Both the position numbers and the translations under genes were made by a program. Of a stretch of 24,405 nucleotides of DNA, positions 3,235 to 24,405 are shown in pieces (the first letter of the stretch is position 1; every line of letters starts with the position of its first letter). The stretch comes from an uncultured Acidobacteriota bacterium (GTDB taxonomy: Bacteria; Acidobacteriota; Vicinamibacteria; Marinacidobacterales; Marinacidobacteraceae), in contig CAYGAO010000014.1 in the NCBI GenBank assembly GCA_964347715.1, positions 1 through 24,405 on the forward strand, in the 5' to 3' direction. The notes beneath the pieces were generated by a model, which saw only the letters and a program-made list of their open reading frames with translations, searched no databases and had not been told where the DNA came from.

Positions 3235-5471
3235 TCGGGGCCGGTGTCCTGGCCGAGCCCCGGATACAGCCGGCGGTAGAGCGCCTCGTTCCGCATCACG
3301 AGCTTCACATAGTTCCGGGTCTCGGTGAACGGGATCTCCTCGATGAACCGTTCCCGGGGAATCGTCAGGTCCCTCCCGGTCCAGGTCCGGACCCGGTGCG
3401 GCCCGGCGTTGTATCCGGCGAGCGCCAGTTCGGGGCGCTCCCCGAACTCGTCGAGCAGCTGGCGCAGGTAGCGGGTGCCGAAGCGGATGTTCGTCTCCGG
3501 GTCGTAGAGGCGGGCCAGGCGATACGGGACCCCTTCGAGCCGCGCCAGCGCCTGCCCGGTCGCCGGCATGACCTGCATGAGCCCCCGCGCCCCGACCGGG
3601 GACCGGGTCCTCGGGACGAACGCCGATTCCTGGCGGATCAGCGCCGCGACGAGGAAGGGATCGAGATCCCGGCGCTCCGAGAGTTCCTCGATCCGGTCCT
3701 CGTAGCGAAGCGGGAACACGAGCCGCCACCAGGCATCGGGAAGGGCCTCTCCCGCCACCGAGGTGAAGAACGGCGCCGAACGGCGAAGCGCCTGGATCGC
3801 GGGCACCGTCGAGTTCCGGCCGGAGAGCAGATATCCCCGCATCGCGTGGAAGGCGCCGTCGTCGGGGGCGCCCTGCCCCGCCGCCCGTCGGGTCGCCGCG
3901 AGCGCCCGCTCCGCGAACCGCGCGGCGTGGAGCTCCCGGATCCGGGCGGCCTCCTTCGTCCTCCGGATGCGAAAGCGGTCGAGCAGCAGCTCCGGCGCGG
4001 TCAGCGGGTTCTCGATGGTCTCCGGCCCCGCGATCTCGCGGAGGCGCTCCGCCGCCTCGCGGCCGTAGAACGAGTTCCGGTAGCCGAGGAACACTTCCCG
4101 GTAGCGGCGCGCCGCCGCCTCGGGATCGCCGGTCAGCTCGAGCGTCCGCCCGGCGAAGTAGAGGAACTGGCCCGCCATGAAGTCGCCGGGGTGCTCGCGG
4201 GCGACCTGCTCGAACGCGGCGGCGGTCCCTTCGAGCTCGCCGTTCCGGTAGCGGTCCCAGAGCACATGCCAGCGCGCGAAGAGGCCGTGCGGCCCGACTG
4301 GATGCGACTCGGCGATCCGGGCGAGGTAGGGGAGGGCGGCTTCCCGGTCGTTCACCGCGAGCCGGGCGCGGGCGAGGCTGTTGAGCGCCAGGTGGGCGAA
4401 GGGGTGCTCGGTCTCGAGCGCGAGGAGTTCCTCGAGCACCTGGCTCTGGGTGGTCCGCCGCCCGAGCCGCCGGAGCGACTCGCCCCGGTAGTAGAGCGCT
4501 TCCGGCAGGAGGTCCGGCCGCCGCACCCGGGCGAGGGTCCGGAGCGAGGCGCTGAGCCTTCCCCGATGGAACTCCGCGACCCCGATCCGGAGCCGGACGA
4601 GTTCGCCGTCGGCGGCCGACGCGAACCGGCGAGCGACTTCGAGATAGTTCTCGTGCGCGCGCCGGTGGTTCCCGGCGCGGGCGAAGCCGTTCGCCCGGCG
4701 CATCGCCTTCGGATACCGCTCGGCAGGCGTCGGCGCGACGACCTCGGGCCGGCGGTAGAGGCGGCTCAGGGTCTGCCCGGCGGGAAGCGACTGCCGGTGG
4801 GTCGGCATCTCGTAGTAGAGCGTCTCGAATCGCCGCGCGGCCTCTTCGAAGCGCCCCAGGCGCTCGAGCGTCGTGGCCGTCTCGAAGAGCGCGTCGCCCC
4901 GGAGTCCGGAGGCGGCCGCCCCGGCGACGGCGTCGAAGTGGACGAGCGCCGCTTCGTGGTCGCCCGCCGCGCTCCGGCGGCGTCCGAGTTCGAGCCGGAC
5001 CTCGTCGGTGCGCAGGTAGTCCGGGAACTCGTCGAGGACGCGTTCGAGCGCCGGTATCGCCTCGGACCGGGCGCGCGGCAGGCTCCCGCCCAGGAGGTGG
5101 AGCGCGTCGGCGGCGATCGCGCTCTCCCGGAAGTCGGGAGCGGTCAGGCGCCGGACTGCTTCGGTCCAGCGGCCCCGGCGGAGCGCGTTCGCTCCGAGCC
5201 GGAGCGACGCCGCGGCGCGGCTCCGGCCCGAGGCGCTCGGGTCGTCGGCGACCGCTTCGAGGGCGCGGCGTACTTCGTCCCGCGAGCCGCGCCCGGCGGC
5301 GTCCCGGACCCGGGCGAGGTCGGCGGGAAGGGTCTCGAGCGCCGCCCAGGGAAGCGGCGGCTCCGGCTCCTCGGGCGCTCGCGGGAGGGCGGGGGCGAGG
5401 AGCGCGAGGAAGAAGAATCCGACCAGCGCGCCGGGGATCGCCGGGAACCGCCTGGAGAGAAGCCGCCTCAT
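3231..5471 (-). CDS. slt: Soluble lytic murein transglycosylase (Slt70-like: signal peptide, superhelical TPR-like N-domain, C-terminal SLT domain)
   Basis: ORF 3231..5471(-) of 746 aa. N-terminus MRRLLSRRFPAIPGALVGFFFLALLAPALP is a signal peptide. C-terminal QESAFVP..SPVGARGLMQVMPATG..AGYNAGP is the SLT catalytic motif set. Confidence 0.85.
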   Translation of the reverse strand: MRRLLSRRFPAIPGALVGFFFLALLAPALPRAPEEPEPPLPWAALETLPADLARVRDAAGRGSRDEVRRALEAVADDPSASGRSRAAASLRLGANALRRGRWTEAVRRLTAPDFRESAIAADALHLLGGSLPRARSEAIPALERVLDEFPDYLRTDEVRLELGRRRSAAGDHEAALVHFDAVAGAAASGLRGDALFETATTLERLGRFEEAARRFETLYYEMPTHRQSLPAGQTLSRLYRRPEVVAPTPAERYPKAMRRANGFARAGNHRRAHENYLEVARRFASAADGELVRLRIGVAEFHRGRLSASLRTLARVRRPDLLPEALYYRGESLRRLGRRTTQSQVLEELLALETEHPFAHLALNSLARARLAVNDREAALPYLARIAESHPVGPHGLFARWHVLWDRYRNGELEGTAAAFEQVAREHPGDFMAGQFLYFAGRTLELTGDPEAAARRYREVFLGYRNSFYGREAAERLREIAGPETIENPLTAPELLLDRFRIRRTKEAARIRELHAARFAERALAATRRAAGQGAPDDGAFHAMRGYLLSGRNSTVPAIQALRRSAPFFTSVAGEALPDAWWRLVFPLRYEDRIEELSERRDLDPFLVAALIRQESAFVPRTRSPVGARGLMQVMPATGQALARLEGVPYRLARLYDPETNIRFGTRYLRQLLDEFGERPELALAGYNAGPHRVRTWTGRDLTIPRERFIEEIPFTETRNYVKLVMRNEALYRRLYPGLGQDTGPE

Positions 5472-5561: not shown

Positions 5562-5934
5562 GGGGGCGTACTGGGTTCGACGAAGGGACATGAAGCAGCG
5601 ACTGCATGCCGGGGTTCCATCTTCCGTAAACGGTGGAGAACACACAAAAGCCAACAACGAACTGGCACTGGCTGCTTGAAGCCACGTCCTTCCTGGCCAT
5701 GCCTGCCGGGACGGGAAAGGGCGTAGATCAGGCGGGCTCTGCTGGCGGCTCTCCCGCGCCGTCGGTGAGCATCAGGGATAGTTTCCGCGGCGCGATTCGC
5801 CGGGTCGATGCGCTACGGAAGCGAAACGGGGAAAGGCGCCCTCGGGCGCGGGTTCCCGCCACGACGCGGCTAAGCATGTAGAGGTCGTTGTCGAAGACTT
5901 TCGGACGCGGGTTCGATTCCCGCCGCCTCCACCA
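5562..5934 (+). ncRNA. ssrA: tmRNA (SsrA), one-piece, tag reading frame GCC AAC AAC GAA CTG GCA CTG GCT GCT TGA (ANNELALAA*) at 5650..5679
   Basis: 5' GGGGGCGUACUGGGUUCGACG and 3' GGACGCGGGUUCGAUUCCCGCCGCCUCCACCA with encoded CCA. The 7-bp acceptor stem pairs 5562..5568 with 5924..5930 (one G-U). T-arm GGUUCGAUUCC. Internal tag ORF ends in the canonical ALAA-stop. The 3' block GUAGAGGUCGUUGUCGAAGACUUUCGGACGCGGGUUCGAUUCC matches the E. coli tmRNA 3' domain almost base for base. Confidence 0.92.
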
Positions 5935-5991: not shown

Positions 5992-6196
5992 GAGCGGTGG
6001 AGAAAGCCCTCGTGTGCCGACGCGGCGCGAAGCACCGCCGGGGGGGTCTCCCTCCCCGCGAAAGCGGGCGGAACGGATCGCGTCAGCGATACGGGCCGCC
6101 ACCCGGTGGGGAAAGCGCCCCGCATCCGTCCGGACGACGGGGTTCCTCGTCTCTCCGAGGACGGATTCTCATGCGGGGCGTTCTATCCACCGGCTG
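5992..6196 (+). mobile_element. MITE/REP-like structured element, copy b (full A+B, + orientation), between the ssrA terminator and the OMP stop codon
   Basis: Left end gagcggtggagaaag, right end ctatccaccggctg (imperfect 16-bp terminal inverted repeats). Internal hairpins include a GAAA-tetraloop stem (ccgccccgcGAAAgcgggcgg) and a long imperfect palindrome in the B half. Flanked by ctgac(g) on both sides. Confidence 0.85.
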
Positions 6197-6204
6197 CTGA
6201 CGGG

Positions 6205-7161
6205 TCAGAACCGGTACTTCAGGTGCAGGCCGAAGCCGTAGAGAGTGCGTTCGTTCGTCTCGAGCGTGACGGTGACCGGATTGCTCCCGTCGAGCCGGTT
6301 GCTCGCCGGGGTATGGCTGCGCAGGCGATCGATGGGGCCGGTCGTGTCGCGGAAGCTCTCGGAGGCCGTCCGCCGACCGGCGACGCCGAGCGAGACCGAA
6401 TCGTTGAGTGCGAAATCCACGCCGACGAGCACCTGGTAGCCGAGCAGGCGCGACTCCAGCTCCGTCTGGTTCGTGCTGGTCGTCGAGGCGAGGTTCTGCT
6501 GGACGGTTCGCAGATCGTCGTGGCGGTCCTCCGGAAAGTACCGGGAGATCGAGGTGATGAGCGCCGGGTCGTCGTTTCGCACCCAGGAGAGGCCGTGGTC
6601 CAGGTTCGTGAAGCCGACGCCGACGCCGAGCCCGATCCAGGGGGTGGCGCGGCTCCGGTTTGTGAAGTCGTAGTACAGGTTCCCGAACAGGTTGCGCGAG
6701 GTGGCGCTCCCGATGCGGTCGTCGGCGGCCACGACCTCGCCGTCGAGCTTCGCAACGGCCACCCCGCCGCTGCTCTCGATCCCGGAGGTCTGGTTGTACA
6801 CAGACTCCCGGTAGAAGTACTCGATCTCGACCCGCAGCCGTTCCGAGCCGGGGAACCGGTAGCCGAGCGCTCCGCCGGCCAGGATGCCGCTCGCGCCATC
6901 GAAAGCGTTGGTCCAGGCCGTCTGCGGCGCGTCCGGGTCCCCGCAGAACGCCGGCATCAGGTCGGTGAACGGATTCAGGTGCTCGTCGCAGATGCTGCCG
7001 GGCGTGTTCGCCGCCGAGCCGCTCAGCTCGAGGGCGGACGAGGAGTTCGTCCCGAGTCCCTGGCGCAGATAGAAGCCGCCCCGGGACTGGGCGCGGCCCT
7101 CGCCGGGGGCGAGGGTGGAGAGCAGGGCGCCGAGCCCGACGAGCGCCGCGAGATGTCTCAT
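6205..7161 (-). CDS. Outer-membrane beta-barrel protein (porin/OMP-like), with signal peptide and C-terminal ...KYRF
   Basis: ORF 6205..7161(-) of 318 aa. MRHLAALVGLGALLSTLAPGEGRAQ is a signal peptide. Alternating hydrophobic/aromatic beta-strand pattern (LRVEIEYFY.., GYQVLVGVDFAL.., LYGFGLHLKYRF) with terminal Phe. The SD sequence AGGAGG lies 8 nt upstream of the ATG at 7161. Confidence 0.7.
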   Translation of the reverse strand: MRHLAALVGLGALLSTLAPGEGRAQSRGGFYLRQGLGTNSSSALELSGSAANTPGSICDEHLNPFTDLMPAFCGDPDAPQTAWTNAFDGASGILAGGALGYRFPGSERLRVEIEYFYRESVYNQTSGIESSGGVAVAKLDGEVVAADDRIGSATSRNLFGNLYYDFTNRSRATPWIGLGVGVGFTNLDHGLSWVRNDDPALITSISRYFPEDRHDDLRTVQQNLASTTSTNQTELESRLLGYQVLVGVDFALNDSVSLGVAGRRTASESFRDTTGPIDRLRSHTPASNRLDGSNPVTVTLETNERTLYGFGLHLKYRF

Positions 7162-7173
7162 TCCGGATCCTCC

Positions 7174-7760
7174 TGTTCGCCGCCCGGAGGAGCTCCGGGG
7201 GCGTCCCGGAATGTTGGCACGCCGGCGCGCCCCGCCGGGCTCGGGGGACGATCCTCACGGTTCCGGCGCTCGCCAGCGCATCGACCAGAGGAGTCCCGAG
7301 ACCGCGATCGTGACCGCGGGAACCAGCCTGCCCCGGGGGGCGGCGGATCGTTCCGGTGGCGCCTGCGGGCCTCCGGTGATTTCGGGATCGGTCCCGCGGG
7401 ACGAGGGTTGCTGACGGTGATGACCGATGTCGGCCAGGTGATTCGGCAACCCGGGTGAACCGGAAAGATCGCAATGGACCCGAATGGATCCGAATTGACC
7501 TGAATTAACCCGAATTAGCCCGAATTGACCTGATTTGGCCCGAATTAGCCTGAATTGACCCGAATTGACCTGATTTGGCCCGAATCGGTCCGTCATGGGT
7601 CCGAACGCGGCTCGGATCGGTGGATCCGCGCCCATCGCGCGCCTCGGCCGCGGCCGGACGGGGCGATCAGCCCCCTGGCCCGCAACCCTTCGAAAAGTTC
7701 GGCGGTCAACCGATCCTGCCAGCCCGTCACGGGTGGGTTCGCCGCCGAGGCGGGCGCTGG
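7174..7760 (+). repeat. Long direct repeat R1 (about 85-90% identical to R2 at 9305..9720). It contains the promoter/RBS-proximal region of the OMP gene, a phased 10-bp array, and a 3' fragment of an AlbA_2/HATPase_c_4-like gene
   Basis: Direct alignment: ctgttcgccgcccgg..gctccggg..gttggcacgccggcgcg..ctcgggggacga.cctcacgg.., then ..cgcctgcgggcctccggtgatttc..ggaaagatcgcaat + decamer array + tgggtccgaacgc..ggatccgcgccca..ggacggggcgatc.agccccctggcccgca. R2 lacks ~80 bp present in R1 (about 7285..7365). Confidence 0.8.
7474..7592 (+). repeat. Phased 10-bp tandem array, about 12 units, consensus GACCCGAATT (read in the other phase, TTGACC hexamers every 10 bp)
   Basis: ggacccgaat ggatccgaat tgacctgaat taacccgaat tagcccgaat tgacctgatt tggcccgaat tagcctgaat tgacccgaat tgacctgatt tggcccgaat cggtccg. 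Confidence 0.85.
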
Positions 7761-7826
7761 CGTCAGGTCGCACTGATCCAGCCCGATCGGGGCGTCGATC
7801 AGGCTGGCGCCGATGGGCTCGTCCAC
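7593..7826 (-). pseudogene. 3' fragment of an AlbA_2/HATPase_c_4-family gene (C-terminal ~45 codons), duplicated together with R1
   Basis: ORF 7593..7826(-) ends ..DRLTAELFEGLRARGLIAPSGRGRGARWARIHRSEPRSDP*, closely parallel to the C-terminus of the intact gene at 9590..11074 (..LRRLQKDLEALRARGSIAPSGRGRGATWARIRRADRRSDP..). Similarity is lost upstream of about 7760. Confidence 0.45.
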
Positions 7827-7996
7827 CGGCGCGGGGGAGGCGCCCCCGCGCGGCGCTTCAGTCAGGATACCGGGCGGGAAGCGGGCAGAGTGAACCGGGA
7901 GGGGCCAGCGCGGCGCGGCGGTTCCGGGCGGGAGGCGTCGTCGCTTCCCCGGCCGGCGAGTGGATCCCGACTCGGCGGGTGGCGGGGGAGGGGCTG

Positions 7997-9100
7997 ATGT
8001 TCCACGACCTCCGAATCCAACGGTTCCGCCTCTTCGAGGACCTCCGGATCGACCGGCTGAGCCGCGTCAACCTGATAGCCGGGAAGAACAACACGGGCAA
8101 GACCACGGTTCTGGAAGCGCTGTTCCTGCTTTCGGGCGGGGGAGCGCCCCAACTCCTGGACCGGACCCTCGGCTTCCGAGGCATCGGCCAGGCCCTCGGT
8201 CAGATCGACCGGGTGCCCGAAACGCACTGGGAACCGCTCTTCTTCGGGTTCGAGGCCGGAGAGCCCATCGCGATCCGGGCCGAGACGGCGCGCCACGGCC
8301 CGCTGAACCTGACGCTGAGGATCGAGCGGCGAGATTCGGTGGAGGTCCGCTCGTCGCCTTCGGGCATCGCCGGGGCCACCGTCGTGGAAGGGGAACCGGC
8401 AGGGCTCGACCTGGGCCCGTCCGATCCCCGGTCGCTTCGGCTGGTCTGGCAACAGCGGGAGGAACAGCCAGCCGAGGGACGAATCGAACTGTTCGCCAAG
8501 GGCCTGCGACTTCAAAACCCCCTGGGGGCGCCGTTCCCGGCGTTCTTCGTCTCCAGCCGAACCCACGACCTGGCGACGGATGCGATGCGGCTGGGTCAGT
8601 TGCGGACGAAGAAGATGGGTGGTCGTCTGACCGAGGCGCTGCAGGCGATCGAACCCCGACTCCGGAGCGTCGAGGACAGTGTCGCGGGCGGCAGTCCCAT
8701 GATCTGGGGAGACATCGGGCTGCCCCGCCTGCTGCCCCTGGCGGCGATGGGAGAAGGAATGGCGGCGGTCACCAGCCTGGTCCTGGCGATGGCCGCTGCC
8801 GAGAAGGGGGTCGTGCTGGTGGACGAGATCGAACGCGGGATACACCACTCGGTGATGGAGGACCTGTGGCGGGTCGTGGACCGGAGTTCACGGGAGTTCG
8901 ACACTCAGGTCATCGCCACCACGCACAGCTACGAATGCCTGATGGCGGCGCAGCGGGCCTTCTCGCAGGACGGCGAGTCGGAGGCGGGGGACTTCCGGTT
9001 CCAACGGCTCGAACGGGCGCGGGACGGCGGCATGCGCTCCGTGGGACTCGATCCGGACGATCTGGCGGCGGTCGCTCGCCACGGTCTTGAAGTGCGCTAA
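7997..9100 (+). CDS. ABC-type AAA ATPase (AAA_21/AAA_15-like; the OLD/AbiL/PARIS-AriA/Septu-PtuA type of ATPase), 367 aa
   Basis: ATG at 7997 preceded by GGGGGAGGGG. Motifs seen: Walker A NLIAGKNNTGKTTVLEAL about 25 aa from the N-terminus, ABC-signature-like LPLAAMGEGMAAV, Walker B VVLVDEIERGIHH and H-loop IATTHS. The ORF-track entry 7595..9100 starts too early, inside R1. Confidence 0.8.
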   Translation: MFHDLRIQRFRLFEDLRIDRLSRVNLIAGKNNTGKTTVLEALFLLSGGGAPQLLDRTLGFRGIGQALGQIDRVPETHWEPLFFGFEAGEPIAIRAETARHGPLNLTLRIERRDSVEVRSSPSGIAGATVVEGEPAGLDLGPSDPRSLRLVWQQREEQPAEGRIELFAKGLRLQNPLGAPFPAFFVSSRTHDLATDAMRLGQLRTKKMGGRLTEALQAIEPRLRSVEDSVAGGSPMIWGDIGLPRLLPLAAMGEGMAAVTSLVLAMAAAEKGVVLVDEIERGIHHSVMEDLWRVVDRSSREFDTQVIATTHSYECLMAAQRAFSQDGESEAGDFRFQRLERARDGGMRSVGLDPDDLAAVARHGLEVR

Positions 9101-9105
9101 AGAGG

Positions 9106-9447
9106 ATGGGCAGGGAGCCCCGAGAGATCACCTCGCCGGCGCAGATTCTCGTCGAGGGGCGAGATGGCGAGCTGTTCTTGAACGTACTGATCGAGGCTCT
9201 GGCAGCGGAGGGGCGACTGACCGAGAAGCGCGCGGACCGCTCCGGGATTTCGTGCGGCAGGTCTCGGAGGGGCCAGGGGAACTTCGAGGCCCTTGATCGC
9301 CCTGTTCGCCGCCCGGACGAGCTCCGGGCGGTCCCGGACCGTTGGCACGCCGGCGCGTCCGCCGGGTCGGCTGGGTGCGGCTCGGGGGACGACCCTCACG
9401 GTCCCAGCGCTCGCCAGCTTCCGGCGGCGCCTGCGGGCCTCCGGTGA
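9106..9447 (+). pseudogene. Truncated Toprim-like (DUF4276/RloB/OLD-like) partner of the upstream ATPase. Only ~60 codons are unique before the ORF runs into repeat R2
   Basis: ATG at 9106 lies 5 nt after the ATPase TAA, with the SD sequence AAAGAGG. N-terminal ..AQILVEGRDGELFLNVLIEAL matches the hV(E)G..E..F Toprim-type opening of DUF4276/RloB/OLD proteins. No downstream DxD-type motif. Sequence from about 9300 onward belongs to repeat R2. Confidence 0.4.
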
Positions 9448-9720
9448 TTTCAGGACGGTTCGCGGACGAGGGCTGCTGACGATGACGACCGATGCCGGAC
9501 CGGGGATTCGGCAACCGGGTGAACCGGAAAGATCGCAATTGACCCGAATTGACCCGAATTGAGCTGATATTGGCCCGAATCGACCTGAATCAATCCGAAT
9601 CGGCCGGCAATGGGTCCGAACGCCGGTCGGCGCGCCGGATCCGCGCCCAGGTCGCGCCCCGGCCGCGCCCGGACGGGGCGATCGAGCCCCTGGCCCGCAG
9701 CGCTTCCAGGTCCTTCTGGA
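9305..9720 (+). repeat. Long direct repeat R2, the copy of R1. It contains the 10-bp array (9536..9606, about 7 units) and the genuine 3' end of the AlbA_2-family gene
   Basis: See R1. Array: gcaattgacc cgaattgacc cgaattgagc tgatattggc ccgaatcgac ctgaatcaat ccgaatcggc cgg. Confidence 0.8.
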
Positions 9721-11074
9721 GACGCCGGAGGTCAACCGGTTGCGAAAGCCCGGCCCGGATATCCCGGAGCGCCAGCGGATGCCCTTCGCGATCCAGCAGC
9801 GCCAGAATCGCCTTTTGCCGGTCTTCGCTCGGCTCCTTCTCCGCGATGGGGTCGGCGCTGCGTTTCGCCGCCCCGGGCTCGGGATCCGGTCGCGTCTCCG
9901 TCCCGGCGCGCCGGAACCGGACGGTCACGTTGCCCGCATCGTCCTCGATCTCGGGGCGGGGGAGGCCGGCCCGTTCCGTTTCTTCCGCGATCTTGACCGT
10001 CCCTCGACCCCACTCCTCGATCACGCCCCGCCGGTAGAAGGTCCGGGCGATGAGCGGATTCCACGGCCGCGACGGGTGCGGCCCGAAGAGCTTTTCGGGG
10101 GTCAACCCGAAGTGGAGGGTTCCGGGCGAGGTGACCTCCAGCCGGTCGTCGTAAACGGCGATTCCCGGCGAACCGCCGCCGACGGAGTAATCGCGGTGGC
10201 AGAGCGCGTTCGCCAGAGCCTCGCGAGTGGCCAGCGTCGGGTAGAGCGGCTCGTCGATGCGATCCATGCGACCCGGTTCGAACCGGCTGGCGATCGGCAG
10301 CGTGTCCCGCAGGAAACGCTCGCCGGCGCGGAGCAGCGCGAAGGCGTTTCCGTAGAACTGCCGGTTGTCGAGGAACTCCATGCGGTCGAGGCCCCGGAAC
10401 CGGGCGACCCGAAGCCGGCACTGCGGCAACTCGACCTCGAGCCGTCGTTCGTTGCCGAACACCACCGCCGCCGCCCGCAAGGGGACGCCGTCCCGGCAGA
10501 GACCCAGACCGGTCAACAACTCCCCGGGATCGCGGGTGCCGGGATCCTCGAGTCGGCCGCGTCGAATCGCCTCTTCCACCGTGCGTCGAATCTCGGTCGC
10601 GTCCAGATCCCCGACCGACCAGCCGGCCGCCGGCTGATTCTCCCAACGCTGGTCACCATGTAGGCGCTCCAACAGTACGCGGTGGTACTCGTCGGTCGGC
10701 ATGACGCGCGTCGTGTTGCCGACCCGGCGGTAGGCAGAGCCACGATACTCGTACGGCTTCGCCGTTCCCGGAGTCACGGAAACGACCACGATCTTCAGCC
10801 CTTCGGCGACGGGCACCCGCTCGACGGCCGGGGACGCCGGCGGGTCGATCCGCGCGAGCTCCTCGCTCAGCTGCTCGATGGTCCGTTCGCTCACCTGCTG
10901 CCCCACGGGCTTGCCCTCCGGCGTCACCCCGAGGAGCACCCGGCCGCCCTGCTGATTCAACATGGCGCAGACCGTCTTGGCGGCCTCGCGGCGCATCCCC
11001 GTCATTTTCTTCAGCTCCAGCGTTTCCGATTCGCCGGCTGCGACCAGCGCCGCGATCCCGGCTGCGGTGATCAT
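9590..11074 (-). CDS. AlbA_2 (divergent AAA, Schlafen-like) + HATPase_c_4 + C-terminal wHTH protein, the kind often annotated as 'putative transcriptional regulator / RecG-like'
   Basis: Start chosen at MITAAGIAALVAAGESETLELKK (ATG about 11074, overlapping the upstream stop as ATGA). Motifs: LELKKMTG..AKTVCAMLNQQGGRVLLGV (AlbA_2), LREALANALCHRDYSVGGGSPGIAVYDDRLEVTSPGTL (HATPase_c_4). The ORF-track N-terminal 67 aa are upstream extension. Confidence 0.8.
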   Translation of the reverse strand: MITAAGIAALVAAGESETLELKKMTGMRREAAKTVCAMLNQQGGRVLLGVTPEGKPVGQQVSERTIEQLSEELARIDPPASPAVERVPVAEGLKIVVVSVTPGTAKPYEYRGSAYRRVGNTTRVMPTDEYHRVLLERLHGDQRWENQPAAGWSVGDLDATEIRRTVEEAIRRGRLEDPGTRDPGELLTGLGLCRDGVPLRAAAVVFGNERRLEVELPQCRLRVARFRGLDRMEFLDNRQFYGNAFALLRAGERFLRDTLPIASRFEPGRMDRIDEPLYPTLATREALANALCHRDYSVGGGSPGIAVYDDRLEVTSPGTLHFGLTPEKLFGPHPSRPWNPLIARTFYRRGVIEEWGRGTVKIAEETERAGLPRPEIEDDAGNVTVRFRRAGTETRPDPEPGAAKRSADPIAEKEPSEDRQKAILALLDREGHPLALRDIRAGLSQPVDLRRLQKDLEALRARGSIAPSGRGRGATWARIRRADRRSDPLPADSD

Positions 11075-12842
11075 GCCCGCCCAGTACCCCGGTCGCCGTC
11101 CGGCTCGGGGAAGGGTTCGGGAAGCCCCCTGACGATCTTCACGGTCTCGACGCTCACATGGACGATCCGCCGGAACGCGGTCACCAGGTCTTCGGGCTTC
11201 TCGAACCACCCGTTCGGGTCGTTCAGTATCCCGCTCCGCTTGTCGCGCGTCACCCGGTAGCGGTCCATGAACCACTCGACCGGCGACCTGCCGTTCACCA
11301 CGTACTCGTGCGCCTCCGGCGGAATCCCGGCCAGACGAACGAACTCGTTCAGTATCAGCACGCTCCGGTCCTCCTTGTCGGCGAACCGCATCCTGCGGGT
11401 GCCGATACGGAAGTGCCTGGACTCCAGCCCCAGGAGCTTCGACGGTACGACCCGGAGCGGGTATTCGGCGCAGGTCTCATAGCCCAGATGGAGTTTCCCC
11501 AACGCTCGTCCGGCCTCCACGAAGGCGTCGAAGTCGGGAGCCATCGGAATCCGGGGAAGGCCCTTGGCCAGGTCGTTCGCGAAACGCTTGCCGTAGGCAG
11601 GCGCGTGGAGAACCCCGTACACATAGTCGAAGATGTCGTCCTTCGTGATCGTGTCGCGCCCGTAGTGATCCCGAAAGAGGTGCAGCGCCCAGTCCGTGAT
11701 GTTGTCCACCGGACCCATATCCGCCCTGAAGAGTTCGTCGTCGTCAAAGACACCCCCGTGGGTACTTGGGGTAGGTCCATCTGGGGAAGCACTGCCCGAA
11801 CTCGAGGAAGTGGAAGTCGGGCATTCGGTCGGCGAGGAGGACCGAGAATGGTTTCGTCGCGCCCCTCCCAGGCACGCAGATGACGCGATTCTCCGCTCGT
11901 ACTGGTAACGCGGGAAACACTGGCCCTTCGACACCAGCTCGAAGTCGGGCATCGTGTCGGCCATGAGCGCCGCTCCTCCCCGAGAGCGGCTTCGATCTTC
12001 GCCGGGTCGGTGGTCACCGGGAGCTCCAGCTCCTGGAGCGAGGCGTCCTCGTCGTTCCGCCCGGCGCGGGTGTCCGAGCAGATCCCGATGTATCGGTGCT
12101 CCACTGTCTGCTGTTCGGCGAAGGCGCGCATGGACTGCTGCAGCAGCGAGATCGAGGGGACCAGGTAGAGGACCCGCCCGCCGATCCCGACCATCTCCTC
12201 GGCGATCCGCATCGCGGTGAAGGTCTTGCCCGTGCCGCAGGCCATGACCAGCTTCCCGCGGTCGGCGCTCCCGAACCCGGCCCGCACCGCCTCGATCGCC
12301 TGTTGCTGGTGCTTCCGCGCGGTGAACGGCTCGGTCCGCCAGCGGAGCGCCTCCGGCGCCTCCTCGAGCAGGTTCGGCCAGTCCACGGGCCGTTTCGCCA
12401 GGTCGGCGAACTGGAGCACCTGGACCTCGGGCCGCTGCCCCCGGATCATGGCGAGCGCGTTCGGCCCCCATCCGCGCCCGGTGTCCACGACCATGCGGGC
12501 GGTGAAGTGCTTCTTCCCGGAGGCGGCGAGGAACGAGTCGAGGTCGCCCTTCGAGATCCGGGTGTTCGGCCGGTAGCACTTGCACTGGATGGCGCAGAAG
12601 CCGCCGTCGCGCTCTTCGGCGACGAGATCCACCCCGGTGTCCCGGGCCGAGCGCCCGAACCTGACGGCCCAGTCGGCCCACCGCGAGACCGAGGCGAACC
12701 GGTCCCGGTAGAGCGGATCCTCCAGGAGGTATCTCCGGATCAGCCGCTCGAAGAGCGCCCCCTGCTCGGCCGGCGAGCCGGACCGCTCGAAGATCTGGTC
12801 CAGGACTGTCCGCAGGTCGTGCATCGGCCGCCGCTCCCCCAT
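11071..12842 (-). pseudogene. Decayed type ISP restriction-modification enzyme. An N-terminal Mrr-like PD-(D/E)xK nuclease and the first helicase motifs run in one frame (12842..~11985). A frameshift then joins a C-terminal type-ISP-like domain in another frame (~11750..11071). Most of the helicase, the whole MTase and most of the TRD are missing
   Basis: ORF 11355..12842(-) reads GVDLVAEERDGGFCAIQCKCY (nuclease), then MACGTGKTFTAMRIAEE (helicase motif I) and YLVPSISLLQQ, and turns to nonsense after ..AALGEERR. ORF 11071..13224(-) carries real-looking sequence only from ..LMADTMPDFELVSKGQCFPRY.. and MGPVDNITDWALHLFRDHYG...HEYVVNGRSPVEWFMDRYRVTRDKRSGILNDPNGWF (the type ISP C-terminal domain pattern) up to the stop. 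Total length ~1.8 kb against ~4.7 kb for an intact enzyme. A ~70-bp internal duplication sits at 11772..11845 and 11896..11975. Confidence 0.65.
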
Positions 12843-14723: not shown

Positions 14724-16139
14724 GTGTCGCTGCGCCAGGTCCGCCGGCTGATCGCCGACAAGGACATCCGCCATGTGGACTTCCGTTTCGCCGACCTCCT
14801 CGGCGGCTGGCGGCACATCACCTATGCGGTCGAGGCCTTCGAGGAGGACATGTTCGTCGGGGGCGTCGGCTTCGACGGCTCCTCGGTCCGGGGCTTCCAG
14901 GGGATCGAGGACTCGGACATGCTGCTCCGCCCCGATCCGGAGAGCGTCTTCGTGGATCCGTTCTACAAGGATCCGACGCTCGTATTCATCTGCAATGTCA
15001 AGGATCCGGTGACGCTGCGCCTCTATTCGCGCGACCCGCGTTACATCGCCGAGAAGGCGACCCGGTTCCTGAACAGCTCCGCGCTCGCGGACACCTGCTA
15101 CATCGGGCCCGAGGCCGAGTTCTACATCTTCGACGATGTCCGGTTCGACCAGACGGTGAACGAGGCGTTCTACCGGGTGGATTCGGCCTGGGGCGGATGG
15201 AACACCGGACGCGAGGAAGGGCCGAATCTCGGCCACAAGCCGGGGCTGAAGCAGGGCTACTTCCGGATGCCGCCGACCGACCCCTACCAGGATGTGCGCT
15301 CGCAGATGGTCACGAACCTCCGGAGCTGCGGCGTGGACGCCGAACTCCACCACCAGGAGGTCGGTAGTGGCGGACAGGCCGAGATCGGCATCCGCTACAA
15401 GCCGCTCATCGAGATGTCCGACGCGGTGATGAAGTTCAAGTACACGATCAAGAACACCGCCCATCAGCACGGGAAGACGGCGACCTTCATGCCGAAGCCG
15501 CTGCTCGGCGACAACGGCTCCGGCATGCACTGCCATGTGAGCCTCTGGCGCGACGGCAAGAACCTGTTCCACGACCAGGACGGCTATGCCGGGCTCAGCG
15601 ACACCGGGCGCTTCTTCATCGGCGGCGTCCTGAAGCACGCCGGTTCGCTCCTCGCGTTCACCTGTCCCACGGCGAACTCCTACCGGCGCCTCGTCCCGGG
15701 TTTCGAGGCGCCGGTGAAGCTCGTCTATTCGCAGCGGAACCGCTCGGCGGCGGTGCGGATCCCGATGTATTCGGCAGCCGCGGCGGCGAAGCGGATCGAG
15801 TTCCGCTGCCCCGATCCGAGCGCGAACCCCTACCTCGCGTTCTCGGCGCTGCTGATGGCCGGGGTGGACGGCATCCTGGAGCGGACCGAGCCGCCCGCTC
15901 CCGTGGACAAGGACATCTACGAGCTGCCGGAGGCCGAACAGCGAAAGATCGGCGACACCCCGCCGACGCTCAAGGCGGCGCTTCGTTCGCTCGAAGACGA
16001 CAACGAGTACCTGTTGCGTGGCGGCGTGTTCACGCCGGATGTCGTGGACACCTGGATTCGCTACAAGCGCGCGAACGAGCTGGCCTACATGGACCAGCGC
16101 CCGCACCCGGCGGAGTTCGCGCTCTACTACGACTGCTAG
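14724..16139 (+). CDS. glnA: Glutamine synthetase type I
   Basis: GTG at 14724. Collinear with E. coli GlnA: ..VDFRFADLLGG.., FDGSS, ..GPEAEFYIFDD.., ..KPLLGDNGSGMHCHVSL.., ..NSYRRLVPGFEAPV.., ..RNRSAAVRIP.., C-terminal PHPAEFALYYDC. Confidence 0.92.
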   Translation: MSLRQVRRLIADKDIRHVDFRFADLLGGWRHITYAVEAFEEDMFVGGVGFDGSSVRGFQGIEDSDMLLRPDPESVFVDPFYKDPTLVFICNVKDPVTLRLYSRDPRYIAEKATRFLNSSALADTCYIGPEAEFYIFDDVRFDQTVNEAFYRVDSAWGGWNTGREEGPNLGHKPGLKQGYFRMPPTDPYQDVRSQMVTNLRSCGVDAELHHQEVGSGGQAEIGIRYKPLIEMSDAVMKFKYTIKNTAHQHGKTATFMPKPLLGDNGSGMHCHVSLWRDGKNLFHDQDGYAGLSDTGRFFIGGVLKHAGSLLAFTCPTANSYRRLVPGFEAPVKLVYSQRNRSAAVRIPMYSAAAAAKRIEFRCPDPSANPYLAFSALLMAGVDGILERTEPPAPVDKDIYELPEAEQRKIGDTPPTLKAALRSLEDDNEYLLRGGVFTPDVVDTWIRYKRANELAYMDQRPHPAEFALYYDC

Positions 16140-16348
16140 CAGCCCGTGGACAAGACGCCCCGCAAGGGAATCCGTCCTCGAAGAGGTGGGGAACCCCTTC
16201 GTCCGGGCGGATGCGGGGCGCTTTCCCCACCGGATGGCGGCCCGAATCGCTGGCGCGATCCGTTCCGCTCTCTTTCGCGGGGAGGGAGGACCCTCCCCGG
16301 CGGCGCTTCGCGCCGCGTCGGCGCACCAGGGACTTTCTCCACAGCCTG
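16140..16348 (-). mobile_element. MITE/REP-like structured element, copy c (full, inverted orientation), starting 1 nt after the glnA TAG stop
   Basis: cagcccgtggacaag...ctttctccacagcctg, the reverse complement of copies b and e. It explains the artefactual N-terminal extension of ORF 16211..17737 and ORF 14232..16367(-). Confidence 0.85.
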
Positions 16349-16441
16349 CTGGCGCCGCATGAGCCAAGCGTCCCCGATCGAACCGACTCCCGGAGGCCGG
16401 ACGCAGGAAACCCCGACCCCCGCCAACGGAGGCCCGCTTAC

Positions 16442-18568: not shown

Positions 18569-18850
18569 CGTTTCAGGCGCCGGCCGGTCGGATTCCGGAA
18601 CGCTGGCCGGCGGCGCGCGGCGCCGAACGAGCCGGTCGTGAGGCGTTCATGGATTCGGTGTCAGGCGACGGGGAATTCGACGGCCTCCCGTGAGCCCGGT
18701 CGGGTTCGGCCATTACGGTTTCGTCCGGCGACACCCCCATCTCGGGCGCCTCGCAACGAGCGCCTCCGCCTGCCGATCGCCGCCGCCGCCGTCTTTCCGG
18801 CCGCGGCGCGGATCCAGCGCGAAAGGCGGAACCTCGGGGCATCGGCGCGG

Positions 18851-19110
18851 AAGCGCTTCGATCCATCGTCCTCGCTCCGGCTCGTCGTGCTCGCTGGCAA
18901 CGGCGGGCGGCTCGGGGGGGCGGAAGCGCTCCGATCCATCGTCCTCGCTCCGTCTCGTCGTGCTCGCCGGCAACGGTGGGCGGCTCGGGGGGGCGGAAGC
19001 GCTCCGATCCATCGTCCTCGCTCCGTCTCGTCGTGCTCGCCGGCAACGGTGGGCGGCTCGGGGGGCGAAATCGAGCACGCCGATCCATCGTCCTCGATCC
19101 GGCTGCCGCG
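18851..19110 (+). repeat. 73-bp tandem repeat, about 3.3 copies (unit aagcgcttcgatccatcgtcctcgctccggctcgtcgtgctcgctggcaacggcgggcggctcgggggggcgg)
   Basis: Unit starts at 18851, 18924 and 18997 (period 73, >90% identity). A fourth unit is diverged. Because the period is not a multiple of 3, ORF-track frames shift between units. Confidence 0.85.
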
Positions 19111-19727: not shown

Positions 19728-19840
19728 CGGGGTCCGACGAATCGCTTCCGCGATTCGCCCCACCGTCTTTCGCGGGGAGGGGGACCCTCCCCGGCGGCGC
19801 TGCGCGCCGCGCCTGTACCCGAGGGACTTTCACTGCAGCC
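19728..19840 (-). mobile_element. MITE/REP-like element, copy d (A half only, inverted), ending directly at the plsC TGA stop
   Basis: cgaatcgcttccgcgattcgcccc...ctttcgcggggagggggaccctccccggcggcgct...gagggactttcactgcagcctg matches the reverse complement of the A half of copy e. The next 3 nt, TCA at 19843..19845, are the plsC stop. Confidence 0.75.
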
Positions 19841-19842
19841 TG

Positions 19843-20619
19843 TCAGGTGACCTTTCGGGGGGTCCACTCTTCACCGAGGGCTGCTTCGAAGACTGCCCGG
19901 ACCCTCGCCATGAGTTCGCTGACCTGCTCCCGGTCGTCCGGGTCCACTCCCGCCGTTTCGACGGGTTCGTGGTAGCGGACGCGCATCACGCCCGGATGGA
20001 TCAGGAAAGAGCCTCGCGGCATGACCTTCGCCGCTCCGCGCACGGTGATCGGAGCGACCGGAACGCCTGCCCGGATCGCGAGGCGGAACCCGCCGGCCTT
20101 GAAGGGCCCGAGTCTTCCGGTGCGGCTCCGGGTGCCCTCCGGGGCGATCACCAGCGATCGTCCGGCGCGAAGCGCCTCGCCCGCGGCCTCGAGGCTCGCG
20201 CGCGCGGCGACCGGGTTCCGGCGGTCCACCGGGATGAACCCCACCGCGCGGAACGCCCAGCCGACCAGGGGCACCCGGAACGCCTCCTTCTTGATCAGGG
20301 TGGTGTGCACCCCCGGCAGCAGGTAGAGCACCAGCGGCATGTCGAGCAGGGATACATGGTTCACCAGGTAAACCCGGGTGCGCCGCGGTTCGAGCCGGTT
20401 CCGGTCGCGCTCCTCGAACCGGATGCCGGTGATCCCCCAGCACACCCGGACGATGACGCGCCCGAGTTCGTAGCCGAGGCGGTGGCGGCCGCTGAACAGA
20501 TCTCCGAGCGGGATCAGGACGAGGCCGAGGATCAGGAGGACCGGCAGCGCGAGAGCGATTCCGGCCGTGCCGATGACCGCGCGGATGGTTCGCGGGGCGC
20601 CGAGCCCTTCTCCGGACAA
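19843..20619 (-). CDS. plsC: 1-acyl-sn-glycerol-3-phosphate acyltransferase (lysophospholipid acyltransferase)
   Basis: N-terminal TM helix, acyltransferase motif I YLVNHVSLLDMP (HX4D) and motif III VIAPEGTRSRTG. Confidence 0.8.
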   Translation of the reverse strand: MSGEGLGAPRTIRAVIGTAGIALALPVLLILGLVLIPLGDLFSGRHRLGYELGRVIVRVCWGITGIRFEERDRNRLEPRRTRVYLVNHVSLLDMPLVLYLLPGVHTTLIKKEAFRVPLVGWAFRAVGFIPVDRRNPVAARASLEAAGEALRAGRSLVIAPEGTRSRTGRLGPFKAGGFRLAIRAGVPVAPITVRGAAKVMPRGSFLIHPGVMRVRYHEPVETAGVDPDDREQVSELMARVRAVFEAALGEEWTPRKVT

Positions 20620-22528: not shown

Positions 22529-22671
22529 CCAGAGGGACTTTCCCGCGACGACGGCCCGGATCTCCTGGATGCGGTCGAGAGCGGCGTCCCGTTCCGTGCG
22601 GGGCGGGGCCGGGGTGTCCGCCGGGCGCGAACGCGCGCGCGACGAGATCGGCGGCACGGCTCGGGTCTCAG

Positions 22672-22874
22672 CAGCCTGTGGAGAAAGTCCCTCGCGGGCC
22701 GAGGCGGCGCGGAGCGCCGCCGGGGAGGGGTGCGGCGAGGGACCTCCCGCCCCGCGAAAGCGGGCGGAACAGATCGCGCGAGCGATTCGGGCCGCCAGCC
22801 GGTGGGTCCGGACGACGGGGTTGCCCATCTCTTCGAGGACGGATTCCCATGCGGGGCATTTTCTCCACCGGCTG
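22672..22874 (+). mobile_element. MITE/REP-like structured element, copy e (full, + orientation), flanked by a 4-bp direct repeat TCAG. The right TCAG contains the stop codon of the DUF3467 gene
   Basis: cagcctgtggagaaagtccctcgcg...ggattcccatgcggggcattttctccaccggctg. The terminal inverted repeats are cagcctgtggagaaa and tttctccaccggctg. TCAG at 22668..22671 and 22875..22878. Confidence 0.88.
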
Positions 22875-23198
22875 TCAGTGGACGAGCGTGACCCCGGGGC
22901 TGCTCGGCTTCGGGGGCTCGTCGTTCTCCGCTTCCTCGACGGCGCGCAACTGCGTCTCGAGCATCTTGATCAGCGCCGGGACGAGCCGAAACGGCATCGT
23001 CACCCGCGCCTTCGGCTCGGCGTGCACGACCGCATCTTCGGTGATCTCGGTCGAGGCGAGGTCCTCCGGCTGGATTCCGGTGAGGCTGCAGAAGGTGAGC
23101 GTCAGGTCGAACGGCGAATGCGTGGCTTCGCAGAAGTTCGCGTACACCTCGGGGCAGGAGGCGTCCCGACGCGCCTTGATCTTGAAAGTCCGCTTCAT
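22875..23198 (-). CDS. DUF3467-family small protein
   Basis: ..VYANFCEATHSPFDLTLTF..KARVTMPFRLVPALIKMLETQLRAVEE resembles the DUF3467 pattern (..ITHSP.EFVLDF..). The stop codon lies inside the TCAG flank of MITE copy e. Confidence 0.5.
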   Translation of the reverse strand: MKRTFKIKARRDASCPEVYANFCEATHSPFDLTLTFCSLTGIQPEDLASTEITEDAVVHAEPKARVTMPFRLVPALIKMLETQLRAVEEAENDEPPKPSSPGVTLVH

Positions 23199-24048: not shown

Positions 24049-24330
24049 TCAGGCCCGCGACTGCTCGCGTTCCTTCGCTTCTTCCTCTTCCAGTTCGAAC
24101 CTGGTCACTTCCTCTTCCGTCAGGACGCCGGCGTGCTTCCAGATCGGCTCCTGCGGACCCGGAGTGATTCCGTCGAGGTCCGGGTCCGGCCCGCCGTGGG
24201 GAGCCTGCCGAGCGTCGGCGGCCTTCTCGTGGGCCCGCTCGCGACGGCGGAGCTCCTTCGCCCGCTGCTTCGCGACGCGCTCCTTTTCCTTGCGCCGTTT
24301 CAGAAAGGTCTGGCGCGAGCGATTGGGCAT
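24049..24330 (-). CDS. Hypothetical small highly basic/acidic charged protein (93 aa)
   Basis: ORF only. KRRKEKERVAKQRAKELRRRERAHEK.. is charged coiled-coil-like, and MITE copy f lies 15 nt upstream of its start. Confidence 0.35.
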   Translation of the reverse strand: MPNRSRQTFLKRRKEKERVAKQRAKELRRRERAHEKAADARQAPHGGPDPDLDGITPGPQEPIWKHAGVLTEEEVTRFELEEEEAKEREQSRA

Positions 24331-24344
24331 GGCGGAAATCCTAG

Positions 24345-24405
24345 CAGGTCGTGGAGAAAGTCCCTCGCGCGCCGACGCGGCGCGAAGCGCCGCCGGGGAG
24401 GGGCC
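24345..24405 (+). mobile_element. MITE/REP-like element, copy f (start of the A half, truncated by the window end)
   Basis: caggtcgtggagaaagtccctcgcgcgccgacgcggcgcgaagcgccgccggggagggg aligns with the A half of copies b and e. Preceded by ...cctag. Confidence 0.75.

Follow-up and report, generated by a model that had tools for sequence, protein, structure and literature searches.

The window analysed here, a stretch of 24,405 nucleotides from an uncultured Acidobacteriota bacterium (assembly GCA_964347715.1, contig CAYGAO010000014.1, positions 1 to 24,405), contains two tandem arrays of 10-bp units, each lying inside one of two long repeats, R1 and R2. The R2 array abuts the stop codon of an intact gene of the Schlatpase class, whose product combines a Schlafen/AlbA_2 (SLFN_AlbA_2) domain, a predicted GHKL ATPase domain and a C-terminal winged helix-turn-helix (wHTH). 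A 3' array of this kind is a near-universal companion of the Schlatpase-wHTH gene family. Judged from sequence comparison, the arrays belong to the AlbA_2 gene and not to the nearby gene for an outer-membrane beta-barrel protein (OMP), and each is probably a cis-linked cluster of cognate DNA-binding sites for the winged helix of its own protein, abutting the stop codon of the corresponding gene. An initial annotation of this DNA had already proposed, as one of several options, a protein-binding array with the adjacent AlbA_2/wHTH protein as candidate binder, a suggestion that is now backed by linkage throughout the family and by covariation with the recognition helix. As far as our searches go, the 3' array of Schlatpase genes is apparently new, no published description having been found; the accessible portions of the papers on Schlatpases (bioRxiv 10.64898/2026.05.29.728809), on pSlfn-HisKinase-HTH proteins (bioRxiv 10.1101/2025.07.24.666596) and of PMC12839542 contain no mention that we could find of a repeat array following the gene or of a target for the HTH.

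Tandem arrays in the window and in the gene family

In the window, Tandem Repeats Finder (TRF) detects a period-10 array at 7473-7585 in R1 (11.3 copies, 76% matches, score 114) and a period-10/21 array at 9537-9590 and 9574-9601 in R2, with about 7 units altogether. Lag-10 self-identity reaches 0.76 in the R1 array and 0.67 in the R2 array, compared with 0.24 +/- 0.04-0.055 in shuffled sequences (0/10,000 as high), and these are the top two lag-10 scores across the entire 24.4-kb window. The arrays first noticed inside both long repeats are thus real, and the unit numbers given for them, about 12 and 7, stand. The R1 array (7476..7585, minus strand) consists of 11 good 10-bp units with the gene-strand consensus ATTCGGGYCA, exemplified on the minus strand by ATTCGGGCCA, AATCAGGTCA, ATTCGGGTCA and ATTCAGGCTA, plus a degenerate twelfth unit, ATTGCGATCT (7466-7475), and includes an internal 40-bp duplication. 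The R2 array (9540..9611, minus strand) comprises 6-7 units of the ATTCGGGYCA type, of which 1-2 are 11 bp long, plus a degenerate unit at 9530-9539. The Schlatpase-wHTH gene runs into this array, the first two units of which overlap its final codons and its TGA stop (9590-9592). Save for these last codons, both arrays lie outside any open reading frame (ORF). The common flank reported for the two arrays is also present, as a 25-nt block, CCGGGTGAACCGGAAAGATCGCAAT, identical in R1 (7451..7475) and R2 (9515-9539), which, seen along the gene strand, flanks the array on its distal side and opens with the degenerate unit. An exact 21-nt piece of this block had 0 matches in the metagenomes of the Joint Genome Institute (JGI). 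AATT occurs once per 10 bp in the window arrays, and within an array the units match at only 76-77% (TRF). The hexamer TTGACC, said to be part of each unit, is found in only 4 of about 12 units in R1 and 2 of about 7 in R2, and a sigma-70 promoter scan of 6900-9900 returned no site and no promoter hexamer pair, so that the idea of a -35-like promoter array is not supported. Terminator-like sites from a scan of the same interval are not located at the arrays. Rfam searches of the region, run with the gathering threshold and with a relaxed E-value cutoff, produced no relevant family; the few matches (E ~4-6) are no better than chance.

Each long repeat is made up of the 3' end of a Schlatpase family gene, an array and about 240-310 bp of downstream DNA. 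R2 (~9295..9735) contains the 3' end of the intact gene, its array and ~240 bp beyond it; R1 (~7166..7712) contains a gene-end stub, an array and ~310 bp of non-coding DNA reaching the ribosome-binding site of the OMP gene. The two are ~79% (column identity) to ~85% identical; R1 has gained an insertion of 73 bp and R2 one of 13 bp relative to each other, and their unit numbers differ. The stub (7593..7712, minus strand) is a pseudogene remnant of the winged-helix C-terminus of a second family gene, reading ...LRARGLIAPSGRGRGARWARIHRSEPRSDP*, and ends at the edge of the R1 array. As tblastn aligns this 44-codon stub with the C-terminal end of the 494-aa product of the intact gene (44 aa, 68% identity, E 8e-15), R1 is the relic of a second gene copy whose array is now an orphan that has also expanded to 12 units, with the 40-bp duplication. 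The best-supported reading of R2 is that of the working copy, carrying the array of the intact gene. The difference between 12 and 7 units, initially taken as a sign of instability, is therefore one between two old paralogous copies and does not show that a single locus is unstable. Exact-protein look-ups led to the same locus in two further assemblies, L001 (99.7% identical to the window over 17.2 kb, 49 mismatches) and L002 (99.93% identical over 10.2 kb). Both arrays are base-for-base identical in these three assemblies, which are independent and come from the same population, which means that at this divergence the number of units is not unstable.

The protein family is large and highly conserved (3,208 matches at E <= 1e-40) and includes members with 63-74% aa identity in proteins source-labelled Poribacteria, Gemmatimonadetes and Chloroflexi, a distribution in which the gene appears to have been widely moved by horizontal transfer. 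Among close homologues, 7/7 loci fetched from ENA/NCBI assemblies carry a tandem array 4-12 nt past the stop, in neighbourhoods that are all different. The units are GGCTTATTGCC/GGCCTATTCC in L127, of the GGCCTATTCT type in L128 and GGCCAATTCC (x3-4) in L130, and (GGCTTATTCT)x5 occurs both in a Gemmatimonadetes-labelled metagenome-assembled genome (MAG; locus L227) and in a Poribacteria-labelled one (L228). Searching JGI metagenomes with an alignment of the family brought in 80 further loci, at 36-65% identity. Once stops had been corrected, near-duplicates removed and at least 60 nt required after the stop, 67 non-redundant loci remained, spanning 36-74% aa identity overall. An array, counted as any TRF repeat of period 9-12 with 2.8 or more copies lying between -40 and +120 nt relative to the stop, is present at 50 of the 67 loci. 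Array density is 4.68/kb near the stop; the remainder of these loci, 433 kb in total, contains 27 arrays (0.062/kb), which puts the enrichment at Schlatpase stop codons at about 75-fold. They start at a median of 3.5 nt after the stop (interquartile range, IQR, -5 to 14.5), have a period of 10 at 36 loci, 11 at 10, 9 at two and 12 at two, and contain a median of 4.1 copies (IQR 3.8-5.1, maximum 26.6). Of the 17 loci without a TRF array, at least 11 have 3-6 units recognisable by eye, irregularly spaced or inverted. Five units each are present in the diverged relatives L183, L186, L192, L193 and L209, as in L227 and L228. The window arrays share the features of this class, namely units of 9-12 bp, about 3 or more in number, that start no further than a few tens of nt from the stop of a family gene.

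A cultured case is provided by the Rhodothermus marinus DSM 4252 plasmid pRMAR01, on which a homologue with 32% identity has ATTGGGCAAN x5 across its stop; the N-terminus of the ORF that follows this array appears HsdS-like by eye. In homologues on Bacteroidota plasmids, a 9-10-mer is repeated in a short cluster located at the stop or beyond it. The L227 locus (GCA_009840435.1) has a second array at 4083-4122, with a different unit, GGGGCGTAAT x4, like that of the L149 clade; located ~40 nt before hsdR, this array is possibly the orphan of an earlier gene variant, analogous to R1. A scan of viral contigs for such units yielded one CRISPR spacer and one chance 2-unit match in a likely coding region (L225), and thus no sign of phages carrying such arrays. 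The spacer belongs to a CRISPR array of at least 9 repeats (repeat ~GTCGCAGTAAATCCACCACTGCGCAGGCACTTTCGG) at 560-1100 on the minus strand of L224 (IMGVR_UViG_3300043543_000216). It is 36 nt long (CCAATTCGGGCCAATTCGGGCCAATTCGGTCCAATT) and equals 3.6 units of a Schlatpase-type 10-bp array, which suggests that array-bearing DNA was once sampled as foreign. Long graded 10-bp arrays of another sort occur on many contigs of the same genomes in the Planctomycetota MAGs DAOWOP01, CAYUYD01 and JAXHSV01 (L010, L026, L029, L043, L070, L078, L089, L094, L107), with units drifting from CTTTCCCAAA through CTTTCCCAAT and CTTTCCGAAT to CGTTCCGTTT. As far as we have looked, these represent a multi-copy element unrelated to the Schlatpase arrays.

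The encoded protein and the match of units to its winged helix

The intact Schlatpase-wHTH gene (9590..11074, minus strand; Pfam matches and the gene call in L001/L002) encodes 494 aa ending in ...SDPLPADSD*. The Schlafen/AlbA_2 domain (PF04326, E 3e-20) has an intact Ex4ExK motif (GESETLELKK), of which E15, E20 and K22 are invariant among 26 homologues, and is followed by the predicted GHKL ATPase domain (HATPase_c_4, PF13749, E 2e-22). The AlphaFold2 model has a mean predicted local distance difference test (pLDDT) score of 66.9, with values <50 for residues 261-415, so that the model does not confirm the GHKL fold. At residues ~416-480 the same model predicts an H-H-H-beta-beta winged helix with a pLDDT of 84-93, in which helix 3 (residues 449-461, DLRRLQKDLEALR) is the recognition helix. 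Foldseek retrieves 3LMM with the whole model, SLFN5/11/12/13/14 and the SAMD9 tRNase with the N-terminal domain, and the ArsR/SmtB, Z-alpha and Hop2 winged helices with the C-terminal domain, at a root-mean-square deviation of ~2 A; Pfam matches to the C-terminal winged helix are sub-threshold only. By sequence, the PDB gives only 3LMM, an uncharacterised protein. NCBIfam has no named family for the 494-aa protein, and PADLOC returns weak partial pAgo/Aga matches that correspond to the SLFN-GHKL module. The protein has all three domains that define Schlatpase-HTH or pSlfn-HisKinase-HTH proteins, in the same order as the known members, with which it also shares the intact Ex4ExK and a context of defence and restriction-modification (R-M) genes.

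According to the accessible parts of the sources cited here, the name Schlatpase stands for a Schlafen plus GHKL architecture, of which tens of thousands of proteins are reported and one form has a short C-terminal HTH; the genes are exchanged with Type I R-M loci (bioRxiv 10.64898/2026.05.29.728809). In the related SLFN-pAgo system, as described there, the GHKL domain drives ATP-driven tetramerisation, and RNA-guided filament assembly keeps the SLFN nuclease inactive. Ex4ExK is described as the catalytic motif of Schlafen tRNases, and pSlfn-HisKinase-HTH proteins, a class for which that source reports no sensor in the parts available, account for 19.2% of 5,930 prokaryotic Schlafens (bioRxiv 10.1101/2025.07.24.666596). 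A Schlafen RNase-minimal histidine kinase-wHTH protein is listed as a backup RNase effector in loci encoding bacteriophage exclusion (BREX) or R-M systems (PMC12839542).

The sequence of the array unit is clade-specific, with GGCTTATTCY, GGCCAATTCC, CTCCAATTCA, CTGCTCATTC, GTCGAATTCC, GACGTGCCGA, GGCCAAGTGC and GCAGTCGAGC among the variants. A WATTC core is common to many units, and 9 of the 50 arrays have no run of four A/T. Motifs of the recognition helix can be paired by eye with units: EWEVK with CTCCAATTC, PWTIRE with CTGCTCATTC, ERQVRE with GGCTTATTC and ADRTLRDD with CGCCTTATTC. In L185 and L187, whose proteins have the helix ADRTLRDD/ADRTLGDD, the units on the gene strand read CGCCTTATTC; in L183, L186, L192, L193 and L209 they are reverse-complemented, as (GAATAAGGCG)x5, and overlap the stop; in the VRTFRDD group (L196-L204), two units run one way and the next two are inverted. 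Flipped or inverted units hence occur beside near-identical recognition helices, which argues for recognition of duplex DNA rather than of a single-stranded RNA motif. Linkage, periodicity, position, clade-specific units, orientation flips and dependence on the type of C-terminus are direct observations; which protein binds the array, and what the binding is for, we infer.

Further results bear, for and against, on the winged helix of the neighbouring protein as the reader of the array. A pre-planned Mantel test did not discriminate between the last 95 aa and the N-terminal 370 aa of the protein (0.27 vs 0.27, partials 0.17 and 0.17). Similarity over a 12-residue window on the recognition helix does correlate with array similarity (0.40; partial 0.33 given the N-terminal 370 aa, p = 0.0003; reverse partial, N-terminal given helix, 0.15, p = 0.015), but this window was chosen post hoc, after the structure model, and the sequences are related, with kinship partly controlled. 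The presence of an array also follows the type of C-terminus. Homologues that share the Schlatpase module but have a Fic-like_C C-terminus (...P..P.S..QKY.LT; n=8), the nearest substitute for HTH-less Schlatpase genes, have an array in 1/8 non-redundant loci vs 49/63 for the winged-helix type (Fisher p = 0.0006), a comparison that includes only 8 Fic-like_C loci and is confounded with lineage; those of the 8 that lie on viral contigs have a 9-12-bp array in 0/3 cases. A rule of no array in the absence of a type-A winged helix nonetheless has exceptions in the long arrays of two Fic-like_C loci, L167 (Ga0302251_1000254; 11 bp x 26.6, AAGACCGGTGC) and L166 (Ga0302252_1000119; 22-bp period), the remaining Fic-like_C members being without an array. 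Four loci (L138, L168, L182, L210) are without any array, by eye too. Others (L141, L146, L149, L155, L167, L180) have arrays of 9-27 units which, together with the 12-unit orphan in R1, imply that slippage too shapes these tracts. Unit 8-mers recur elsewhere in the loci at chance level (27 seen vs ~32 expected, at least 10 of the 27 being the window's own R1 array) and form no second, promoter-side set; in view of this lack of recurrence near the promoter, classical autoregulation is not indicated. Moreover, it would be unusual for an operator to lie at a gene's 3' end, and ~4 sites per chromosome would hold just one tetramer, which strains a pure sequestration model. Finally, the assignment of the binder is inferred throughout, from comparing sequences.

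Alternative explanations and a possible mechanism

The array could also be a binding site that regulates the neighbouring gene, as an operator or roadblock for hsdR, hsdM or others, bound either by the Schlatpase winged helix in the role of a controller or by another factor. We regard this as unlikely. The next co-directional gene encodes HsdR in 8 of 51 loci and HsdM in 5, with the array in the short spacer, and controller proteins time the expression of restriction enzymes in Type II systems. However, the downstream genes are otherwise unrelated and heterogeneous, in 18 of the 51 loci the closest long ORF runs in the opposite direction, and the array is not followed by a restriction gene in the window, nor in L127, L128 and L130. 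The array is in fact anchored a few nt from the Schlatpase stop, while the distance to the next start varies from ~20 to ~230 nt. That the array acts as RNA, namely as a 3'-untranslated element of the Schlafen RNase mRNA with an inhibitory (antitoxin-like) or stabilising effect, seems quite improbable. It does lie directly past the stop and is probably transcribed, the Schlafen domain represents an RNase family with its Ex4ExK motif intact, and the antitoxins of type III toxin-antitoxin systems are tandem RNA repeats. Yet opposite or inverted units beside near-identical proteins would yield complementary, unrelated RNAs, the presence of the array tracks the type of DNA-binding domain, and no Rfam family matches. 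ToxI/ToxN likewise has tandem repeats physically linked to an endoribonuclease gene, but ToxI units measure 34-45 nt, lie upstream and act as RNA, whereas Schlatpase units are of 10-11 bp, lie downstream and have no conserved orientation; repeats of the type III kind were rejected on these grounds.

A role as a recombination or mobility joint, that is, a cassette-end site for exchanging the gene or its C-terminal module among defence loci, is very unlikely. It would fit the wide horizontal transfer of the gene, the position of the arrays at boundaries between conserved and non-conserved DNA, the orphan arrays that outlast gene loss or replacement (R1; GGGGCGTAAT x4 in L227) and the spacer of such units in L224. 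On the other hand, no recombinase is consistently associated in the loci inspected, no universal enzyme could act on units that differ between clades, and direct repeats in tandem that lack a counterpart on the 5' side of the gene do not, to our knowledge, correspond to any known site-specific recombination architecture. Least credible are a neutral slippage minisatellite (a variable-number tandem repeat) and a phase-variation or bent-DNA promoter tract for the OMP gene. Repeats of 10 bp are certainly common in bacteria: the pattern CYGAAT-N4 x4 finds >119 unrelated 10-bp tandem repeats in public genomes where ~0.1 are expected by chance; these matches span all phyla, and the scan is too unspecific to show homology. 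The 40-bp duplication in R1 and the long, perfect arrays of some family members (L155 x13, L167 x27) point the same way. Nevertheless, the enrichment at the stop codon of one family across its whole range of identity and in many contexts, the unit number kept in diverged relatives and the lack of length variation among the three assemblies leave the neutral reading largely refuted. Slipped-strand phase variation, as initially suggested, is not supported, in view of imperfect units, equal lengths in the three assemblies, a unit number kept in diverged relatives and a position outside any ORF, save for the last codons, with no promoter hexamer pair. Intrinsic A-tract bending, another early proposal, cannot be the conserved property given the 9 of 50 arrays without a run of four A/T. 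As for the OMP gene, the geometry given in the initial annotation was right, the R1 array being 315 bp from it and the R2 array at the end of the AlbA_2 gene, but a functional link does not follow: in three loci with OMP homologues (62-67% identity), the DNA upstream of the OMP gene contains no array and no R-like sequence, and no promoter-like site was found in the window.

Other known arrays offer partial likenesses. The iterons invoked at the outset have units of 17-22 bp instead of 10 bp, no rep is found among the genes called within +/-10 kb, and the local G+C minimum is only 54%. Integrase arm-type sites, the other element of that proposal, are not supported either, as the L001 gene calls around the locus include no integrase; the repeats detected include no duplicate of the tmRNA 3' end, and no island boundary was identified. 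The parC (plasmids R1/pSK41, bound by ParR) and tubC (bound by TubR) centromeres are tandem 10-11/20-bp repeats. Like Rep iterons, they have in common with the Schlatpase arrays a cis array of short tandem repeats beside the gene for its own binder, repeats that diverge with the protein and an expected cooperative, filament-like binding. Unlike them, the arrays described here come with no ParA/ParM/TubZ or Rep gene, have units shorter than iterons, lie 3' of the gene where parC and tubC lie 5' of the operon, and are linked to a nuclease-ATPase and not to a segregation or replication protein; a partition centromere was rejected for the absence of par/tub genes nearby and the 3' position. With PhoB pho boxes and OmpR sites they share short direct repeats one helical turn apart (10-11-bp spacing), a conserved core with variable spacer positions and, as predicted here, a winged helix as the likely reader. 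Pho and OmpR boxes, however, sit in promoters at about -35 and regulate initiation, whereas the Schlatpase array abuts the stop in either orientation, and by fold its winged helix is ArsR/Z-alpha-like, unlike that of OmpR.

If the array is indeed a cluster of sites for the winged helix of its own protein, the C-terminal domain would read one 10-11-bp unit. Since the units recur at every helical turn, an ATP-driven oligomer would have its winged helices aligned on one face of the duplex. Because SLFN-pAgo tetramerises via its GHKL domain and the median array has ~4 units, the oligomer may be a tetramer. Placing the site within ~200 bp of the codons for the recognition helix would keep a co-evolving pair together through frequent horizontal transfer. 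What docking achieves is the least certain step. Our preferred guess is that docking keeps the latent tRNase under control, and inactive, by tethering or assembling it; alternatively, the bound protein could act at the gene's 3' end as a roadblock or insulator. Tethering is favoured on the analogy of filament-locked SLFN-pAgo and of PrrC masked by its restriction enzyme. PrrC in the EcoprrI Type I R-M locus is also a latent tRNA-cleaving abortive-infection effector, its gene being a passenger between hsd genes, and in 13/51 of the family loci hsdR or hsdM comes next; PrrC, however, is held inactive by protein contact with the restriction enzyme, and the PrrC system has no DNA repeat array. By analogy with the guide-RNA filament that holds SLFN-pAgo latent, the array might be a DNA "safety catch", in which docking on the ~4 phased units by its own gene holds an abortive-infection tRNase latent, a proposal that we put forward as a doubtful though conceivable one. 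Contact would be lost in infection, through degradation of host DNA, DNA-mimic anti-restriction proteins or competition by foreign DNA, giving rise to an active ATP-bound tetramer; if true, this would be a toxin under the control of a cis-encoded DNA element and not of a protein or RNA antitoxin.

Whatever its role, a clade-specific array beside the stop codon is a concrete candidate ligand for the HTH of a very common class of Schlafens in R-M/BREX loci. The arrays would then constitute a natural data set of protein-DNA specificity pairs, and many "mysterious" short 10-bp tandem repeats in defence islands might thereby be explained. Orphan arrays such as that of R1 could be used as markers of past gene turnover.

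Neighbourhood of the window locus

Directly upstream of the Schlatpase-wHTH gene lies the 215-aa C-terminal fragment of a Type IIG/ISP R-M enzyme (11071..11718, minus strand), the stop and start codons of the two overlapping; beyond this fragment are housekeeping nitrogen genes. Between the two long repeats is a gene for an AAA_15/AAA_21 ATPase (7997..9100, plus strand) that is AbiLi-, PDC-M38A- or AriA-like by Pfam and PADLOC. It is followed by a small ORF that starts at 9106 (beginning MGREPREITSPAQILVEGRDGELFL) and is cut at ~9295 by the left edge of R2. This ORF is without a match in Pfam, PADLOC and NCBIfam, and we suspect it to be a truncated partner gene of the ATPase. As repeats of ~85% identity flank the ATPase and its presumed partner ends at the R2 edge, the arrangement fits the replacement of most of the second Schlatpase gene by another defence cassette. 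An AAA_15/AAA_21 ATPase adjoins the Schlatpase-wHTH gene elsewhere too, upstream and together with a TIR gene in L226-L228 (700-2500), compared with downstream in the window; this may reflect a recurrent partnership or mere crowding in defence islands.

On the other side of R1, the OMP gene occupies 6205..7161 on the minus strand, downstream of the R1 array, and a tmRNA gene is found at 5562-5934, 1.5 kb from the array. The window also contains G+C-rich interspersed repeats of ~100-210 bp, similar to repetitive extragenic palindromic sequences or miniature inverted-repeat transposable elements, which are 80-94% identical and occur in both orientations (1-106, 6007-6202, 16138-16350 (inverted), 19738-19847, 22653-22880 and 24326-24405); a single one of them directly separates the tmRNA gene from the OMP gene. 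A further tandem repeat, with a 73-bp unit, is located at 18847-19101 (3.5 copies, 92% matches, TRF score 411), and a fourth partial copy of its 31-nt core is found at 19074-19104.

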